Source of the DNA: Actinomycetota bacterium | Lineage (GTDB): Bacteria; Actinomycetota; Thermoleophilia; Solirubrobacterales; Thermoleophilaceae | Reading direction: 5' to 3' | Assembly (NCBI GenBank): GCA_046726915.1 | Contig: JBKPBS010000008.1 | Coordinates: 10 to 64,009 of the forward strand | DNA length: 64,000 nucleotides | Shown here: in pieces, positions 3,396 through 18,879 of the stretch | Layout of the letters: each line of letters starts with the position of its first letter | How positions within the stretch are numbered: the first letter of the stretch is position 1 | Program-made: the position numbers and the translations under genes | The notes under the pieces: model-generated | Seen by the model: only the letters and a program-made list of their open reading frames with translations | What the model was told of the DNA's origin: nothing | Database searches by the model: none

Positions 3396-3986
3396 TTGCG
3401 CAAGCCGCGGGCGGTGCCCGCGGCGCAGCGATGCCCTTCCGTCCGGGTGACCCGCCAGTCTCGCTCCGTGCCCGACATCTCGGTCGCCGCCACCGCTCCG
3501 TCCGCGCGCTTCGCGCTCCCGTCGGACCGGCAGTACCTCGCGGGCCGGCACGTGTGGGCGCAGATCGAGGACGGGATAGCGACGATCGGGGTCACGGCGC
3601 CTCTCGGCGAGGTGCTCTGGTACACGCCCGAGGTCGAGTACTGGGCCGTCGACCGCGTGGATGTGGGCGAGACGCTCGCCACGGTTCAGGGTCGCTCGAG
3701 CCGCACGGTCGCCGTCGGCTCGCCGGTCGCGGGCACGCTTGTCGAGCTGAACCCGCTGCTCCGGCGGGCGCCGCACGCGCTGCTGGCGCAGCCCTACGGG
3801 CGCGGCTGGGTCGCACGGATCTCGGCCGATCGCTGGGAGCGCGACGAGACCGCGATGGTCTCGGCGCGCGCCTACCGCAAGATCCTCGACGCGGACCTGG
3901 CGCTGGGGCGCGAGTTCTGCTTCGGCGGCGCGCTCCTCGCGCCGCGGCAGCGCGAGTCGCCGGGGCCGCGCGGCGCCGCCGCCTAG
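3396..3986 (+). CDS. Glycine-cleavage H (GcvH)-fold protein lacking the lipoyl-lysine
   Basis: YLAGRHVWAQIEDGIATIGVTAPLGEVLWYTPEVEYW...VGETLATVQGRSSRTVAVGSPVAGTLVELNPLL...PYGRGWVARI matches the GcvH pattern (HEWV..., ...SPVSGxVVEVN, PYxxGWl). Start is uncertain: TTG 3396, or internal GTG 3447 or 3468. Confidence 0.7.
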   Translation: MRKPRAVPAAQRCPSVRVTRQSRSVPDISVAATAPSARFALPSDRQYLAGRHVWAQIEDGIATIGVTAPLGEVLWYTPEVEYWAVDRVDVGETLATVQGRSSRTVAVGSPVAGTLVELNPLLRRAPHALLAQPYGRGWVARISADRWERDETAMVSARAYRKILDADLALGREFCFGGALLAPRQRESPGPRGAAA

Positions 3987-4352
3987 CTAGGCGCCCTCGA
4001 CTCGGGCGCTCACGACCTTGCCCTCGTCGTTGAAGCGATAGACCCAGCGCGACTGGGTGTCGGCGAGCCGGCCCTCGTCGATCGTCCTGACCCACCCGCT
4101 GACCACCACCGAGTCGCCCTCCTCGGAAATCGAGTAGGCGCCCGCCCGCATCTCGAGGCCCTCGTCCGCGAAGCGCGACCAGAACTCCCGCAGCCCGTCA
4201 TGGCCGCGGATCTCGCGGCCCTGGGCCGCATGGGGCTGGAACACGACGTCTTCGGCCGAGTGTTTCAGGAGCTCCTCCGCCGCCCCGGGGAGGTCGTTCT
4301 TCTCCATCAGTTCGAACAGCCGGCGGATGAGCGCTACACGAGGCGAGTCCAA
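3987..4352 (-). CDS. SnoaL/NTF2-like small protein
   Basis: LIRRLFELMEKNDLPGAAEELLKHSAEDVVFQP...GHDGLREFWSRF...WVYRFNDEGKVVSARV is typical of the SnoaL-like fold. The likely start is TTG at 4352, preceded by GGAGGTGG; the track start at 4409 adds an implausible leader. Confidence 0.65.
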   Translation of the reverse strand: MDSPRVALIRRLFELMEKNDLPGAAEELLKHSAEDVVFQPHAAQGREIRGHDGLREFWSRFADEGLEMRAGAYSISEEGDSVVVSGWVRTIDEGRLADTQSRWVYRFNDEGKVVSARVEGA

Positions 4353-4415: not shown

Positions 4416-5303
4416 CTAGACCGGAGCCGGTGCCCGCTCCCGCGGCTTCACCGTCGCCACCGCCACGCCCGCGATCACGATCGCCACGCCGAGCAGCTGG
4501 ACAGCGGAGGGCGCCTCAGAGAGCAGGACCGCGCCGAGGAAGACCGTGCTCACCGGCTGCAGCATCAGGACGATCGACGTGAGCACGGCCGGGAGCCGCG
4601 GCAGTGAGACCGAGATGAGCAGCCAGCCGAGCACCTGCGAGGAGAGCGCGAGCAGCACGAGCCAGGCCTGCGACTCGAGGCCGGGCACCCAGTCGATGTC
4701 GCCGACCGCTATGCCGCCGATGGCGGAGAACACCGCACCGCTCAGAGTCGCGTCGAACAGCGGCCCCGCCGGCCTTCGCTCATCGCTGTTCCCGTGCCTC
4801 AGGATGAGGATGAAGAGCGCGTAGCTGATCCCCGTGAGGACGCCGAAGACCACTCCCAGGAGCGGATCGTCGCCGTAGGCGCCGCTCCCGATCACGCCGG
4901 AGATCAGGATCACGCCGCCGAAGGCGACCGGGATCGCGGCAAGCGAGCGGTTCTCGGGGCGCTCGCCGAGCGCGGCCCAGGCCAGCAGTCCCACGAGCAC
5001 CACCTGGGTGTTGCCGAGCACGGTCGCCAGCCCCGCGCCCACCGCCTCGATCGAGTGATGCCAGAAGGTCAGGTCCGCGGCGAACATCACGCCCGCGCCC
5101 CAGGCGAGCCGGCGGTCGCGCCACGACCGCGCGCCATAGCGCCGCCGTTCGATCCAGGCGAGGAGAGCCAGCACCGGCAGCGCGTATGCGCAGCGGAAGA
5201 ACGCCGCGGTGGAGGGCGACACCTCCGACAGCCGCACGAGGATTGCCGAGAAGGCGATGACGAGCGCGCCGAGCACGCCTGCAAGCACTGGCCGGTCAAA
5301 CAC
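4416..5303 (-). CDS. EamA/DMT-family transporter (10-TM drug/metabolite exporter type)
   Basis: Only the C-terminal 295 aa of track ORF 4416..6404 look like protein: two EamA-like halves of hydrophobic helices (VLGALVIAFSAILVRL...GLLAWAALGERP...LGWLLISVSLPRLPAVLTSIVLMLQPV). The GTG at 5303 fits as the start. Confidence 0.85.
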   Translation of the reverse strand: MFDRPVLAGVLGALVIAFSAILVRLSEVSPSTAAFFRCAYALPVLALLAWIERRRYGARSWRDRRLAWGAGVMFAADLTFWHHSIEAVGAGLATVLGNTQVVLVGLLAWAALGERPENRSLAAIPVAFGGVILISGVIGSGAYGDDPLLGVVFGVLTGISYALFILILRHGNSDERRPAGPLFDATLSGAVFSAIGGIAVGDIDWVPGLESQAWLVLLALSSQVLGWLLISVSLPRLPAVLTSIVLMLQPVSTVFLGAVLLSEAPSAVQLLGVAIVIAGVAVATVKPRERAPAPV

Positions 5304-5340
5304 GGCGACCGAGAGTAGCCGCGGGTATGGTGCGGCCCCG

Positions 5341-5517
5341 GTGGACCGCAACACGCTCCTCTGGACGCTGGTCGTCTTCTTCGGCGCATCGATCATGTTC
5401 GCCGCGATTCGCAATGCCACGCGCGACGAGGCCGCGGGCGTGCAGCTGCTCACGCAGCTCGGCGCTGGCCTTCTGGTGGTGGGGGCGATCGTCGTGTATC
5501 TCAGGCGCCGCCGATGA
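5341..5517 (+). CDS. Small two-TM membrane protein (58 aa)
   Basis: In frame with track ORF 5209..5517. From GTG 5341 it reads VDRNTLLWTLVVFFGASIMFAAIRNATRDEAAGVQLLTQLGAGLLVVGAIVVYLRRRR. Its stop overlaps the next ATG (ATGA at 5514-5517). Confidence 0.4.
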   Translation: MDRNTLLWTLVVFFGASIMFAAIRNATRDEAAGVQLLTQLGAGLLVVGAIVVYLRRRR

Positions 5518-6704
5518 AGCTGGCGATCGCGGCTCTCGTCGCGGTCGCGGTGCTCGCGGTGCTGGTCGGGATCGGTTCGCTCACCCGAGCCGAGAAGCCA
5601 CCCGAACCGGTCGTGCTCCTGCCCGGGGCGACGCAGGTCGGCGAGCTCGACAGGGCCGAGAAGCGGGAGCTCGCCCGCAGCTTCCGGCCGTACCTGTATT
5701 TCGACAGCCACGAGCCGTGGCGCCCGGTCGAGATCGGGAGCTTCCTGTCGGAGCGCTATCCCGACGGCGGAGGCCACCAGGTCTGCCCGACGTCCGACCG
5801 CAGCGGTTGCGTGCCGGTCACGAGCATCGACGAGCTCGTGGCGACCATCGCGATTCGCGACCCGGGCCAGGCGCTCCGCCTCAACATCCACGGGCGCCAG
5901 GCGGCGGGACGCGACTTCGCGAGCCCGACGCGAAGCGCGTGCTTCGAGGAGCGCCTCCGCGATTGCGACGCCGGCCCGGCGACGGTGATCTACGCGAACC
6001 TGCATCCGGCCGGCGACGAGCTCTTCATCGACTACTGGTGGTTCCTTCGCTACAACGACCTGGACCTGCCCGACGCCGGCCGCTGCGGGGGCCCCCTCAA
6101 GAAGGCGTTCCCCAAGCTGTGCGGCGACCACGAGGGCGACTGGGAGGGCATCACCGTGGTCACGGACCTGGCGGCGACGCGCGTGCGCTACGCGATCTTC
6201 GCCCAGCACGACGGCAGGATGCGGCTCGACCCCGGGCCTCAGGGGGACTTCGCGGCGCGCCGCTTCGAGTTCGCCGACCCCGAGCGGAGGCACGTCAAGG
6301 TGTACGTGGCGCAGGGAACGCACGCGTCCTACCCCTCGCCGTGCCGGCACAAGCGCGGCCGCTTGTTCTGCAAGCAGGGCAACGGCCTGCCGGAGGGCTT
6401 CCACGACGGCGAGCGCCCCTGGGGCCGCAACGACGAGGGCGACTGCGGGCAGGAGCCCGGGTGCGTGCTCCTGCTTCCGCGCATAGGCAGCGAGAATCCC
6501 GGCGAGCCGCTGCTCTACGCGGCGAGCTGGAACGCCTGGCCCGGGCTGTGGGGGTTCTGCGTGAAGGGCGAGGCTCCCTGCGCGCAGGGCCCCCGCTCGC
6601 CGGGCCTCCAGGCGCGCTATCAGCAGCCGAGCAACCGGCTCACGCCGGCGCTCGAGGTGCCCGACGCCGCGGTGCCCCTGCCCGCCCAGGAGCCGGCCCG
6701 GTGA
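5514..6704 (+). CDS. Membrane-anchored, Cys-rich HxxDWE-domain protein (Vps62/NLP-like)
   Basis: N-terminal anchor MKLAIAALVAVAVLAVLVGIGS, then PYLYFDSHEPWRP...LFIDYWWFLRYND...CGDHEGDWEGITVV...FAQHDG...VYVAQGTHASYPS. There are twelve Cys arranged in close pairs, which suggests an extracytoplasmic disulfide-bonded domain. Confidence 0.75.
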   Translation: MKLAIAALVAVAVLAVLVGIGSLTRAEKPPEPVVLLPGATQVGELDRAEKRELARSFRPYLYFDSHEPWRPVEIGSFLSERYPDGGGHQVCPTSDRSGCVPVTSIDELVATIAIRDPGQALRLNIHGRQAAGRDFASPTRSACFEERLRDCDAGPATVIYANLHPAGDELFIDYWWFLRYNDLDLPDAGRCGGPLKKAFPKLCGDHEGDWEGITVVTDLAATRVRYAIFAQHDGRMRLDPGPQGDFAARRFEFADPERRHVKVYVAQGTHASYPSPCRHKRGRLFCKQGNGLPEGFHDGERPWGRNDEGDCGQEPGCVLLLPRIGSENPGEPLLYAASWNAWPGLWGFCVKGEAPCAQGPRSPGLQARYQQPSNRLTPALEVPDAAVPLPAQEPAR

Positions 6705-7075
6705 CCCGCTGGATCGTCGACGGGATGAACGTGATCGGGTCGCGTCCGGACGGCTGGTGGCGCGACCGGCCGGGCGCGATGGGCGCGCTCGTCGAGAAGC
6801 TCGAGGCGTTCGCCCGGCGGAGCGGCGACCCGGTCACCGTCGTGTTCGACGGCCGGCCGTTCGAGCTGGAGGGCGGCGAGGGCGTGACCGTTCTGTTCGC
6901 GTCGCGGCCCGGTCGGAATGCGGCCGACGACGACATCGCGGCGCGGGTGGAGAGCGACGACGAGCCGAGCTCTCTCTCAGTCGTGACCTCGGACGCCGAC
7001 CTCGCTCGGCGCGTCCGCGCCGCCGGGGCGGCCGTTGTGGGCGCGGGCGAGTTCCGCCGCCTGCTCGACGGCTAG
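6701..7075 (+). CDS. NYN-domain (YacP/Rae1-like) predicted ribonuclease
   Basis: GTG 6701 overlaps the upstream stop (GTGA). VTRWIVDGMNVIGSRPDGWW...VTVVFDG...VLFASRPGRNAADDDIAARVE...VVTSDADLARRVRAAGAAVVGAGEF matches the YacP-like NYN pattern (DGYNVI, VVFD, ADxxI, TSD). Confidence 0.8.
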   Translation: MTRWIVDGMNVIGSRPDGWWRDRPGAMGALVEKLEAFARRSGDPVTVVFDGRPFELEGGEGVTVLFASRPGRNAADDDIAARVESDDEPSSLSVVTSDADLARRVRAAGAAVVGAGEFRRLLDG

Positions 7076-8359
7076 GTGCTCCTCGACAATCGCGCGGCAG
7101 CCGCGCCCCGGCACGACGGTCACGTGACGGACCACGCCGCGCTCGGGCCGCTGCGTCGGCGCGCGCAGTCGCACGCGGCGGAGCACCTCGCGCAGCACGG
7201 TCCGCATCTCCACCTGGGCGAACGACGCCCCGATGCAGCGCCGGATGCCGCCGCCGAACGGGATCCATGCGTAGGACTCCGGGGCACCGTCCATGAAGCG
7301 CTCCGGCCGGAACTCCGCCGGCGACTCGTACAGGTCCGGGCGTGCATGCAGCACGGCGATCGCGGGCAGCACGAGCGTTCCGGCGGGCAACCGCCAGCCC
7401 GCGACTTCCGTCTCGCGCGTGAGCTTCCGTGCCACGTCGACGATCACGGGCCGCACCCGAAGCGTCTCCTTCACCACGGCGTCCAGATAGTCGTCGTCGT
7501 CGAGCGATCCGGTCAGCCGCTCCAGCACGCGCGGAGTGCGGAGCAGGCGCTCGAAGGCCCATGCGAGCCCGGTCGCCGTCGTCTCGTGTCCGGCGGTGAG
7601 GAGCGTCATGAGCTCGTCTCGCAGCTCCTTGTCCGTCATCGCCGAGCCGTCCTCGTGCCGGGCCCGCAGGAGCAGCGAGAGCACGTCGTCCTGGTCGTCG
7701 TCCGAGGCAACCCTCCGCTCAGCGATCTCGGCGTAGATCAGCTCGTCCACCGCCGCCAGCGCCCGCCGGAACTTGGCCGCCGGCGTGAACCCGCCGAGGT
7801 CGCGGTCCATGAAAGGCAGCCAGTTCAGCACGCTGGTGGTCTCGCCGAGCGGCGGAATGCGCTCGCGGAACAGGTCCATCCGCCTGTCGTCGCGCACGCC
7901 GAAGACCGCCCGCAGGATCACGTCGAGCGTGATCGCCTGCATGCGCGGCCGCAGCTCGATCTCCCTGTCGACCGGCCAGCTCGCCACCTCGCGCTCGGTC
8001 GCCTCGGCCATGACCTCGGCGTAGCGGCGCACGCTCGCACCATGGAAGGGCGGCAGGAGCAGCTTGCGCTGGCCCATGTGGCGGTCCTCGTCGAGCGTGA
8101 GGAGCGAGTGCTCCCCGAGCGCGTCGCCGAGCGCGAGCGTGTTCGCCTCGCCGGCATGGAAGGTCTTCGAGTCGCCCGCGAACACCTCCTTCACGAGCGC
8201 TGGGTCGGCCACGTAGACCACGCGGCCGAAGATCGGGAAGCGCGAGGAGAAGACGTCGCCGTAGCGGCGCCAGCGCTTCAGCATCCAGCCGTACGGCGAC
8301 GCGGTCACGAGAGCGGCCTGGAGAAGGCTCGGCAGCCGGGGCCCGGGGGGCAGTTCCAC
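6977..8359 (-). CDS. Cytochrome P450
   Basis: Heme-thiolate loop FGGGIRRCIGASFA, ExxR (ETLR) and I-helix LLTAGHETT are present. The likely start is GTG 8359 (VELPPGPRLP...), 3 nt after the upstream stop. The 3' end overlaps the convergent NYN gene. Confidence 0.9.
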   Translation of the reverse strand: MELPPGPRLPSLLQAALVTASPYGWMLKRWRRYGDVFSSRFPIFGRVVYVADPALVKEVFAGDSKTFHAGEANTLALGDALGEHSLLTLDEDRHMGQRKLLLPPFHGASVRRYAEVMAEATEREVASWPVDREIELRPRMQAITLDVILRAVFGVRDDRRMDLFRERIPPLGETTSVLNWLPFMDRDLGGFTPAAKFRRALAAVDELIYAEIAERRVASDDDQDDVLSLLLRARHEDGSAMTDKELRDELMTLLTAGHETTATGLAWAFERLLRTPRVLERLTGSLDDDDYLDAVVKETLRVRPVIVDVARKLTRETEVAGWRLPAGTLVLPAIAVLHARPDLYESPAEFRPERFMDGAPESYAWIPFGGGIRRCIGASFAQVEMRTVLREVLRRVRLRAPTQRPERGVVRHVTVVPGRGCRAIVEEHLAVEQAAELARAHNGRPGGADAPSEVGVRGHD

Positions 8360-8361
8360 CC

Positions 8362-16799: not shown

Positions 16800-17954
16800 G
16801 TGCCGGTCGGCGTTTGCGGCCGACATTTCGCGGGGAAGCCCGTCTCTGTGAAGGTGGGGCTGGTGCTCGGGGCGGGAGGCGTGCTCGGAGGCGCGTGGCT
16901 CGTCGGCGGGCTCAGCGCGCTCGCGCGCGAGACGGATTGGGATCCCGGCAGCGCCGATCAGATCGTCGGCACCTCCGCGGGGTCGATGATCGGCGCGCTC
17001 GTGGCGGGCGGGGTGCCGCCCTGGTTCATGGTCGCCCACTCGCGGGGCGAGGTCTTCGATGGCCTCGTCGGACCCGACGGACGCCCAGCCGCGGACGCGG
17101 ACCGCTCCGCCGGCGCGAACTTCCGCCTCCACCGCGGCCTGCCCGCGATCGGCCCCGGCTCGCTGCGCATGGCCTTCACGGCGCTGTCGAACCCGCTGCG
17201 CCACACCCCGCTCCAGATGGTGGCCGGCTGGCTGCCGTCCGGATTCGTGTCGACCGACCCGCTCAGGGAGACGATCACGCGCGCCGTGCCCGGCGACTGG
17301 GTCGAGCACGCGAACTACTGGGCCGTGGCGTGTGACTACGAGTCCGGCCGCCGTACTCCGTTCGGCCGGCTCGGGTCGCCGCGGGCGGACATCGCGGACG
17401 CCGTCGCGGCGTCCTGCGCGATCCCGGGCTTCTACCGGCCCGTGAAGATCGGTGGCCGGCGCTACGTGGACGGCGGCGTCTGCTCGGTGTCGAACATGGA
17501 CCTCGTCGCCGGCCGCGGCCTCGACCTGGTCATCTGCCTCAACCCGCTCACGAGCCGCTCGGAGCGCCAAACCCGCTCCCGCGGCGGCGTCACCAAAATC
17601 GCCACCGGCGCGATCAACGGGGCGCTCGACTTCGTGCCCTCGATAACCCGCCGCGCCTCGCGCGGGCGGCTCGAGCGCGAGGAGCGCAAGGTGCGCCGCT
17701 TCGGCGCCGAGGTCGTGATAATCGAGCCCACCGCCGAGGACCACGCGGCAATGGGGCACAACTGGATGAGCGCGGAGCGCCGCCAGGACGTGATCGACAC
17801 CGCGGAGGAGACGGTCGCCAAGCAGCTGAGGAGCCCCGCGCTCCGGGAGCTGCTCAGCGGCCTTCCGCGCGGGGAGCCGCACAAGATCAGCCGCCCGTCC
17901 GGGCCGCCGTCGAGCTGGCCCGAGATGCGGGCGAGCCTACGGCGAGCCGCATGA
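16800..17954 (+). CDS. Patatin-like phospholipase
   Basis: Oxyanion GAGGVLGG, nucleophile GTSAGS (GxSxG) and catalytic DGG (YVDGGV). Alternative start GTG 16848 (VKVGLVLGAGG). Confidence 0.9.
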   Translation: MPVGVCGRHFAGKPVSVKVGLVLGAGGVLGGAWLVGGLSALARETDWDPGSADQIVGTSAGSMIGALVAGGVPPWFMVAHSRGEVFDGLVGPDGRPAADADRSAGANFRLHRGLPAIGPGSLRMAFTALSNPLRHTPLQMVAGWLPSGFVSTDPLRETITRAVPGDWVEHANYWAVACDYESGRRTPFGRLGSPRADIADAVAASCAIPGFYRPVKIGGRRYVDGGVCSVSNMDLVAGRGLDLVICLNPLTSRSERQTRSRGGVTKIATGAINGALDFVPSITRRASRGRLEREERKVRRFGAEVVIIEPTAEDHAAMGHNWMSAERRQDVIDTAEETVAKQLRSPALRELLSGLPRGEPHKISRPSGPPSSWPEMRASLRRAA

Positions 17955-17964
17955 GCCGGGAGCC

Positions 17965-18879
17965 GTGAGCACCTCCACCGCCCACGGGTCGTCGAACGGG
18001 GGAGCGCCCGGGTCCGGGGCGCCACCAGGCCCCGGCTCGATCGTCCAGTTGGTCAGCCGCGTGATCGGCGCGATCGCGGAAGAGGCCCAGCGCCGGGTGC
18101 CGAGCGCCGACCTCGACGAGCGCGACCCGGACTACATCCGCGAGACGCTCCCCGGGCTATGGATGCTCGCGAGCCTCTACTTTCGGGCCGACGTCCGCGG
18201 GCTGCAGAACATCCCAGAGGAGGGCCCGGTGCTGCTCGTGGGCAACCACTCCGGCGGCAACCTCACACCCGACACCCACGTCTTCACGCTGGCGTTCACC
18301 ACCTACTTCGGAGTCGAGCGCCGCTTCCACCAGCTCGCCCACAACCTCGTGCTCTCGATGCCCGGCCTCTCTAGCCTGCGGAAGTACGGCACCGTGGCCG
18401 CGACGCCGGAGAACGCGGCGAAGGCCCTCGACGTGGGCGCCGCGCTCCTCGTGTACCCCGGCGGCGACTACGAGGTCCACCGGCCGAGCTGGGAGTCCGC
18501 GCGCGTTGACTTCGGCGGCCGCAGGGGCTTCATCCGCCTGGCGCAGGAGCGGGAGGTCCCGCTCGTGCCGGTCGTGGCGATCGGCGGCCAGGAGACCGCG
18601 CTGTTCCTCTCGCGCGGCGAGCGCATCGCCAAGCTGCTCGGACTCGACCGCATGTTCCGCCTGAAGGTGCTGCCGGTGTCACTGGCGCTCCCATGGGGGC
18701 TGAACGTGGGCGACATGCTCGGCCACATCCCACTGCCCGCGAAGATCACGATCCAGGTCCTGGAGCCGATCGACGTGTCGGGCATGGATGTCGACGAGGC
18801 GTACGAGCTCGTGACCGGGCGGATGCAGACGACGCTCACCGGGCTCGCCGAGGAGCGGGCACTGCCCGTGCTGGGCTGA
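17965..18879 (+). CDS. Acyltransferase (PlsC/LPLAT-superfamily-like)
   Basis: PEEGPVLLVGNHSGGNLTPD and VYPGGDYEV resemble lysophospholipid/DAG acyltransferase blocks. The gene lies between the patatin and acyl-CoA synthetase genes. Confidence 0.7.
   Translation: MSTSTAHGSSNGGAPGSGAPPGPGSIVQLVSRVIGAIAEEAQRRVPSADLDERDPDYIRETLPGLWMLASLYFRADVRGLQNIPEEGPVLLVGNHSGGNLTPDTHVFTLAFTTYFGVERRFHQLAHNLVLSMPGLSSLRKYGTVAATPENAAKALDVGAALLVYPGGDYEVHRPSWESARVDFGGRRGFIRLAQEREVPLVPVVAIGGQETALFLSRGERIAKLLGLDRMFRLKVLPVSLALPWGLNVGDMLGHIPLPAKITIQVLEPIDVSGMDVDEAYELVTGRMQTTLTGLAEERALPVLG

Follow-up and report, generated by a model that had tools for sequence, protein, structure and literature searches.

An NLP/Vps62-like gene as an apparent accessory occupant of a small membrane protein and YacP-type nuclease operon in Solirubrobacterales

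The window analyzed here is a 64,000-nucleotide (nt) stretch of an Actinomycetota bacterium (Solirubrobacterales; Thermoleophilaceae; contig JBKPBS010000008.1), in which three genes on the forward strand are joined by start/stop overlaps. A preliminary description, made from the letters alone, took them for a tightly coupled trio in which a tiny membrane protein, an extracytoplasmic protein with an NLP/Vps62-like domain and a cytoplasmic NYN-type ribonuclease would act together. Is this a dedicated system, or an ordinary operon? Comparison of related loci indicates that the three genes quite likely make up an ordinary operon, in which the NLP-like gene is no dedicated partner of the nuclease gene. 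As judged from sequence comparison, the conserved core is a tiny two-helix membrane open reading frame (ORF) that is translationally coupled, through a GTGA overlap, to a YacP/Rae1-type NYN gene; the NLP/Vps62-like gene appears to be a dispensable accessory occupant of that operon, carried by a minority of closely related Solirubrobacterales genomes. The three genes are as follows.

5341..5517, + strand: tiny ORF, 58 amino acids (aa), GTG start; two predicted hydrophobic helices, RRRR at the C-terminus; conserved as the partner located upstream of the NYN gene
5514..6704, + strand: middle gene, 396 aa; predicted N-terminal signal-anchor helix (residues 2–23), then a putatively disulfide-rich domain of the NLP/Vps62 superfamily; HEGDWE encoded at nt 6129–6146
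6701..7075, + strand: gene for a NYN_YacP (Rae1-type) ribonuclease domain protein, 124 aa; GTG start inside GTGA; PF05991

The chaining of the three genes at 5514 and 6701, as first described, is confirmed by the ORF coordinates (5341–5517, 5514–6704 and 6701–7075). The stop codon of the tiny ORF (5515–5517) and the ATG of the middle ORF overlap in the sequence ATGA (5514–5517), and the stop of the middle ORF and the GTG of the third ORF overlap in GTGA (6701–6704). Overlaps of 4 nt are the commonest operon junction in high-G+C bacteria, and the GTGA junction of the NYN gene is retained whichever gene lies upstream; these overlaps thus indicate co-translation and not a specific partnership.

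Viewed from the nuclease gene, the full trio is rare. A middle-family gene is present in only one of the 83 loci anchored on NYN homologs (L087 to L169), namely L087, which has the complete trio, and the NYN gene has more than 120 clusters of relatives at 72% identity or above, as against about ten for the middle gene at 55% or above. L088 has the same synteny (EamA, tiny ORF, NYN, P450 and hydrolase genes) but no middle gene, and its tiny ORF stops 7 nt from the NYN start; the sequence lying between that stop and the NYN start (L088 positions 3985–4005) is ATGGCGCGGTGA, a mini-ORF that resembles the first codon and the last few codons of the missing gene. The tiny ORF abuts or overlaps the NYN gene directly in nine NYN-anchored loci; direct junctions of this kind are found in L090, L091, L092, L093, L111, L126 and L150, and in L090, L091 and L126 the junction is cGGTGAnCCGCT (a GTGA overlap), identical to the junction between the middle gene and the NYN gene in the window. 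In three loci a short-chain dehydrogenase (SDR) gene of about 255 codons occupies the same slot, with GTGA overlaps at both of its ends, and in all the slot is empty or SDR-filled in 12 loci. The SDR genes lie at the following positions.

L098, 503–1279: SDR gene in the slot
L103, 2219–3001: SDR gene in the slot
L127, 2225–3001: SDR gene in the slot

These three loci belong to a deeper-branching clade. On at least two occasions, therefore, unrelated genes have entered this junction. On a neighbor-joining tree of the NYN proteins, the loci that have the middle gene are intermingled with those that lack it (L005 groups with L088, and L004 with L091), and this would imply repeated loss or gain of the middle gene, on a tree that is itself weak. 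The L088 junction reads ATG-GCG-CGG-TGA, the sequence expected if the middle gene had been lost by a clean internal deletion, though this is only suggestive of a scar; whether by gain or by loss, the occupancy of the slot appears to have changed. Outside the narrow clade, no small coupled membrane ORF was found upstream of the more distant NYN genes, whose upstream neighbors are varied and mostly uncoupled.

The view from the middle gene is similar. The trio with the same overlaps is present in L004, L005 and L006, where the middle protein is 76–81% identical to that of the window, and the entire neighborhood of these three loci is syntenic (GCV_H, SnoaL, EamA, the trio, P450, hydrolase and ROK genes). 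The next homolog, 59% identical and on a 229-kb contig, has neither the tiny ORF nor the NYN gene near it; its neighbors are a 5′–3′ exonuclease gene, an unannotated gene on the opposite strand immediately upstream, and a DUF2277 gene downstream. A 39% homolog sits between a beta-helix protein gene and mfd. These two together with 80 further loci at 32–40% identity (all from Solirubrobacterales, Thermoleophilia or unclassified Actinomycetota metagenome-assembled genomes) make up a set of 82 middle-anchored loci, and in none of the 82 did a hidden Markov model scan find a NYN gene or tiny ORF within about 6 kb. A search of the same loci for a consistent functional neighbor returned only heterogeneous housekeeping genes, the commonest being an ABC1/UbiB-like kinase gene (16 of 82).

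The tiny ORF itself is, on the pattern of its sequence conservation, evidently a real gene. Its length is constant at 58 codons in 16 related loci, the N-terminal half of its product is strongly conserved (VDRNTVLWTLVVFFGAS), and the protein has two hydrophobic segments. In its own frame the differing codons between loci include 1311 synonymous and 1710 non-synonymous ones, whereas the other five frames have 201–871 synonymous and 2163–2836 non-synonymous, so that the synonymous excess is confined to the frame of the ORF; its stop, moreover, overlaps the next start in every arrangement compared. It could be argued that so short an ORF, for which neither Pfam nor NCBIfam gave an informative family match and whose column of high third-position G+C content (GC3) falls together with that of the EamA gene, which lies further upstream on the opposite strand, is not a gene at all, and that the unit consists of two genes with a long 5′ leader. 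The conservation of length and sequence in 16 loci, the frame-specific synonymous excess and the invariable overlap of its stop with the following start make that reading extremely improbable. The tail of the tiny protein always has three to five basic residues (RRRR, RRKR or RRHR) directly before the overlapping stop (5503–5514 in the window). As pure speculation, this basic tail might affect expression of the NYN gene, since Rae1-type RNases act at stalled ribosomes, including those at stop codons.

The possibility that the tiny membrane protein, the extracytoplasmic NLP/Vps62-like protein and the cytoplasmic NYN RNase form one module, through which an envelope event that is sensed or caused outside the cell would be linked to RNA cleavage within it, must be weighed against these comparisons. 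Both junctions are 4-nt overlaps, the arrangement is retained in L004, L005, L006 and L087, and no described system of such composition was found in NCBIfam, PADLOC or literature searches (none of the three proteins, nor the paralog discussed below, matched a PADLOC-DB model at E ≤ 0.01, and the NCBIfam scan of the three proteins gave nothing informative). But close relatives with this syntenic locus, in which the tiny ORF and NYN gene are still coupled, have no middle gene there, an unrelated gene of cytoplasmic type (SDR) takes its place in another clade, and the two families are found together neither in the middle-anchored set (0 of 82) nor, beyond L087, in the NYN-anchored one (1 of 83). 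The co-function that had been proposed for the NLP-like domain and the RNase is therefore not upheld, and the single-module reading, which the comparative data largely refute, appears very unlikely. The conservation of the three-gene arrangement, which had been put forward as a test, holds within a narrow Solirubrobacterales clade, but trivially, as the whole neighborhood is syntenic there, and it fails beyond that clade.

Some observations nevertheless pull against the ordinary-operon reading. Five independent contigs, with identities as low as 76%, have retained the trio with both 4-nt overlaps, and a clade-specific co-function of the three genes is conceivable; the metagenome loci are short and unevenly sampled, and the tree on which loss or gain is read was built from only 124 residues. 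We infer transcription, export, disulfides and ligand binding alike. The ordinary operon is still the reading that we prefer, and the two larger products can be considered separately.

The third protein is the YacP-type NYN nuclease that it had been taken for: it matches PF05991 (NYN_YacP) with 43.7 bits (cut-off 24.6; E = 3.8e-11) over residues 5–122. The match covers profile positions 2–127 of 166 and the protein ends at residue 124, and it is therefore a minimal version of the family. More than 7700 homologs were found. Residues D7, D76–D78, D98 and D100 are invariant in 18 homologs, within the motifs VDGxN, AADDDI and TSD; the acidic active-site residues of the PIN/NYN fold are presumably among them. 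A single-sequence search of the PDB gave no solved relative, only spurious, low-complexity-like matches to FCGBP.

The middle protein has the features that were first ascribed to it. Its sole hydrophobic segment is residues 1–23, a helix in the AlphaFold model, and there are exactly 12 cysteines, in six close pairs (91/99, 143/151, 191/203, 277/286, 311/317 and 349/356; spacings 6–12), of which 91/99, 143/151, 277/286 and 311/317 are conserved in 26–29 of 29 relatives. The motif series is YWWF (174–177), GDHEGDWEG (204–212), QHDG (231–234) and VAQGTHASY (265–273), and residues H206, D209, W210 and E211 are invariant across sets of 30 and 58 relatives. Two further segments are conserved in the family, RFRPxLxFDSxExWRP near the N-terminus and PRSPxxQxRY near the C-terminus, neither of which was aligned with NLPs in the profile comparison. 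The family is very large: a profile search of 1.84 billion cluster representatives gave 6651 proteins at E ≤ 1e-3 (representatives at 50% identity) and 575 at E ≤ 1e-30, and the best matches found come from Thermoleophilia. Many members are multidomain proteins of 500–1500 aa, and the domains fused in 58 long members include PD40 and DUF5122 propellers, LamG, patatin (2 of the 58) and GDSL lipase. Domains of these types are usually extracytoplasmic, and an exported location of the family would fit with that. Apart from the marginal Vps62 and NPP1 matches described below, no Pfam or NCBIfam model covers the family (the middle protein itself has no NCBIfam match), and literature searches turned up no studied member. 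The GC3 of the middle gene is as high as that of its neighbors, so composition does not suggest a recent horizontal insertion.

To which fold does this protein belong? It had been associated with the Vps62 and NLP/NPP1 types, and this stands at the level of the superfamily. Among 30 aligned relatives 21 match Vps62 at E ≤ 0.1 (best 1.7e-7) and ten match NPP1 weakly (best E = 4.2e-4), the only other family match being one weak TMEM106_N in one member (E = 0.074); a few relatives in the database carry a precomputed PF06101 match. The family profile, run against all PDB sequences (E ≤ 10), found seven sequences, all of them NLP toxins, with 3st1 the best at E = 1.6e-4. In the profile alignment to 3gnz, 5nnw and 3st1, N181 lies opposite the Asp of PKD, and H206, D209 and E211 lie opposite the H, D and E of GHRHDWE; a cysteine of the middle protein is likewise aligned with the conserved NLP cysteine. 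The cation pocket of NLPPya we take to be D93, H101, D104 and E106. The middle protein thus has residues aligned at the pocket positions, but an Asn replaces the first Asp, and the strict GHRHDWE heptapeptide is absent, DHEGDWE (residues 205–211) standing in its place. The peptide HVGDWEH of Vps62 has been likened to the NLP heptapeptide in a 2026 paper (PMC13159263).

Structure prediction of the 396-aa protein and comparison with NLPs, as the preliminary description had advised, point the same way. The AlphaFold2 model has a mean pLDDT of 73.7 (core 85–95) and a pTM of 0.77, and in a Foldseek search of the PDB its 15 best matches are all NLP structures (9wsc, 3gnz, 5nnw, 5no9, 6qbe, 3st1, 6qbd and 3gnu; E from 3.5e-5 to 6e-4, probability 1.00), the sixteenth falling to E = 0.85. 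Counting against so close a kinship, the middle protein itself matches Vps62 (PF06101) with only E = 0.023 and 13.5 bits, below the cut-off of 22.1 bits (residues 203–282, profile positions 365–435 of 541), and Pfam gave no match to NPP1 (PF05630) at E ≤ 1; the model rests on a 30-sequence alignment, and its TM-scores to NLPs are moderate (0.41–0.56, normalized to the NLP). On the predicted model and these profiles, the middle protein is a member of the NLP/Vps62 superfamily through a distant but specific link, outside both Pfam families by their thresholds.

Could the middle protein then be a genuine secreted cytolysin of the NLP type, one that harms the membranes of eukaryotic or competing cells after attaching to their glycosphingolipid-like receptors, its place in the operon being incidental? 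NLP toxins alone make up its best matches in structure and in profile, its family retains without exception the H, D, W and E of the NLP heptapeptide, the conserved NLP cysteine has a counterpart, and patatin or GDSL lipase domains are joined to some members of the family. On the other hand, it has no PF05630 match and has HEGDWE, not GHRHDWE; its N-terminal hydrophobic region of about 21 residues looks more like an anchor than a cleaved signal; it is about 180 residues longer than NLPs, with extra cysteine-rich segments; and its family is very large and occurs in housekeeping contexts in free-living soil Thermoleophilia. The apparent membrane anchor, the divergent motif and these contexts make a cytolysin role possible but unlikely.

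A quite unlikely, broader proposal is that the tiny two-helix ORF, with its RRRR–stop, and the GTGA-coupled minimal Rae1-like NYN gene would form a real unit whose junction is a recurrent landing site for unrelated cargo (the NLP/Vps62-like gene or the SDR gene) under the same coupling, possibly with control by ribosome stalling and the RNase, and that, as a separate matter, the NLP/Vps62 superfamily would have in bacteria a very large branch, so far unannotated, which binds membranes or glycans and to which the middle protein belongs.

Under the preferred reading, that of an ordinary operon with an accessory gene, the locus might work as follows. A single mRNA, probably leaderless, would start in the short gap between the divergent EamA gene and the tiny ORF and cover all three genes, with ribosomes re-initiating at each overlap. 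The middle protein would be exported by way of its single N-terminal hydrophobic helix, acting as a signal anchor or uncleaved signal, and outside the cell it would fold as an NLP-like beta-sandwich, stabilized by short-range disulfides, four to six in number. The conserved pocket of the protein (N181, H206, D209 and E211), which aligns with the presumed NLP cation/sugar site D93/H101/D104/E106, would most likely bind a divalent cation together with the head group of a glycan or glycolipid, which could belong to the envelope of the same cell or to a foreign membrane. The NYN protein would remain in the cytoplasm as an endoribonuclease of the Rae1 kind, independent of the middle protein.

A second HxxDWE domain had been noted elsewhere in the window, and it is indeed a distant paralog, scoring 21.2 bits (E = 6e-9, in a single-target test) against a middle-family profile built without it. 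The genes around it are the following.

15256–15789: ORF of 177 aa upstream of the paralog, which it overlaps by 4 nt
15786..16748, + strand: distant paralog with a YW...HxxDWEG...H...GSH core, upstream of the patatin and acyltransferase genes
16800–17954: patatin gene
17965–18879: acyltransferase gene

The paralog lacks most of the cysteines of the middle protein and falls in another subfamily, one with much wider conservation (1684 matches). In relatives (L170 and L171) an AMP-binding/cyclase gene comes next, and the gene order of window positions 15256–18879 is conserved at about 70% identity. The patatin/acyltransferase context of the paralog, together with the patatin fusions in 2 of the 58 long middle-family members, is a hint that the superfamily has a function connected with lipids. 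The paralog and the ORF upstream of it both start with ERGQAxVE(W/F) followed by a hydrophobic stretch; this resembles TadE/pseudopilin-like N-termini, but Pfam gave no match.

The trio is flanked by two genes on the opposite strand and preceded by a possible promoter.

4416..5300 (approximate start), − strand: divergent gene for an EamA-family transporter (PF00892, E = 1.7e-26), a syntenic neighbor outside the operon
5326..5331, + strand: putative promoter, a −10-like hexamer TATGGT in the gap of about 40–60 bp to the EamA gene, 9 nt before the GTG of the tiny ORF
6977..8437, − strand: convergent cytochrome P450 gene (PF00067, E = 1.2e-63)

The EamA gene has the same position in L004–L006, L087 and L088. 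A TAnnGT hexamer is found 7–9 nt 5′ of the tiny ORF's GTG in five loci (the window, L004, L005, L006 and L088), and a scan for sigma-70 consensus promoters gave no match; inspection by eye of the few nucleotides 5′ of the GTG (5326–5340) revealed no Shine–Dalgarno-like sequence. The conserved TAnnGT spacing and the lack of a noticeable Shine–Dalgarno-like sequence suggest a leaderless transcript that starts at or beside the start codon of the tiny ORF. A terminator-like hairpin inside the middle gene (6338–6359) is at chance level (one found, 0.6 expected), and the middle and NYN frames have a GC3 of 0.9–1.0. The 3′ tail of the P450 gene and the 3′ end of the NYN gene share 99 nt (6977–7075), and the overlap is likewise called in L004, L087 and L088; as the Pfam match of the P450 stops at residue 431 of 486, this tail could be read-through without a function, in a genome poor in stop codons.

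Since the proposed system of an NLP-like protein and an RNase is not upheld, little follows from the pairing itself. The locus is a clean example of the fact that start/stop overlaps alone are no evidence of co-function in high-G+C genomes. NLP/Vps62-fold domains with a conserved HxxDWE pocket, on the other hand, make up a large, unannotated bacterial family (the 6651 representatives above), which could merit characterization for what such folds bind outside the plant–pathogen context.

Compared with known systems, the trio is indistinguishable from the generic translationally coupled operons of high-G+C Actinomycetota; its ATGA or GTGA overlaps are retained at every junction, whichever gene fills the slot. 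The nuclease resembles Rae1/YacP in its above-cut-off PF05991 match and its invariant acidic motifs, but it lacks the C-terminal part of the full, 166-position architecture, and its coupling to a tiny membrane ORF is restricted to this clade. Bacillus subtilis Rae1, the characterized family member, cleaves mRNA upstream of stalled or collided ribosomes, according to two reports (PMC12407103, PMC13622287).

The middle protein shares with the NLP/NPP1 proteins (PF05630; 3GNZ, 5NNW, 3ST1, 6QBE and 9WSC) the same predicted fold, a profile-to-sequence similarity that spans the central strands, the HxxDWE core of the cation-binding heptapeptide with aligned Asn/Asp and Cys positions, and, probably, an extracytoplasmic location. 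It differs from them in its motif (HEGDWE in place of GHRHDWE), in its length (about 396 aa as against 210–230), and in having an N-terminal membrane helix, the RFRPxLxFDSxExWRP segment and a cysteine-rich C-terminal extension; its host is a bacterium of the Solirubrobacterales and no toxicity is known for it, unlike the NLP cytolysins. Vps62/DUF946 (PF06101) is the best Pfam relative of the family, its HVGDWEH resembling the HEGDWEG of the middle protein, but Vps62 is a eukaryotic vacuolar-sorting or plant family, without a solved structure among the PDB matches, whereas the middle protein is bacterial.

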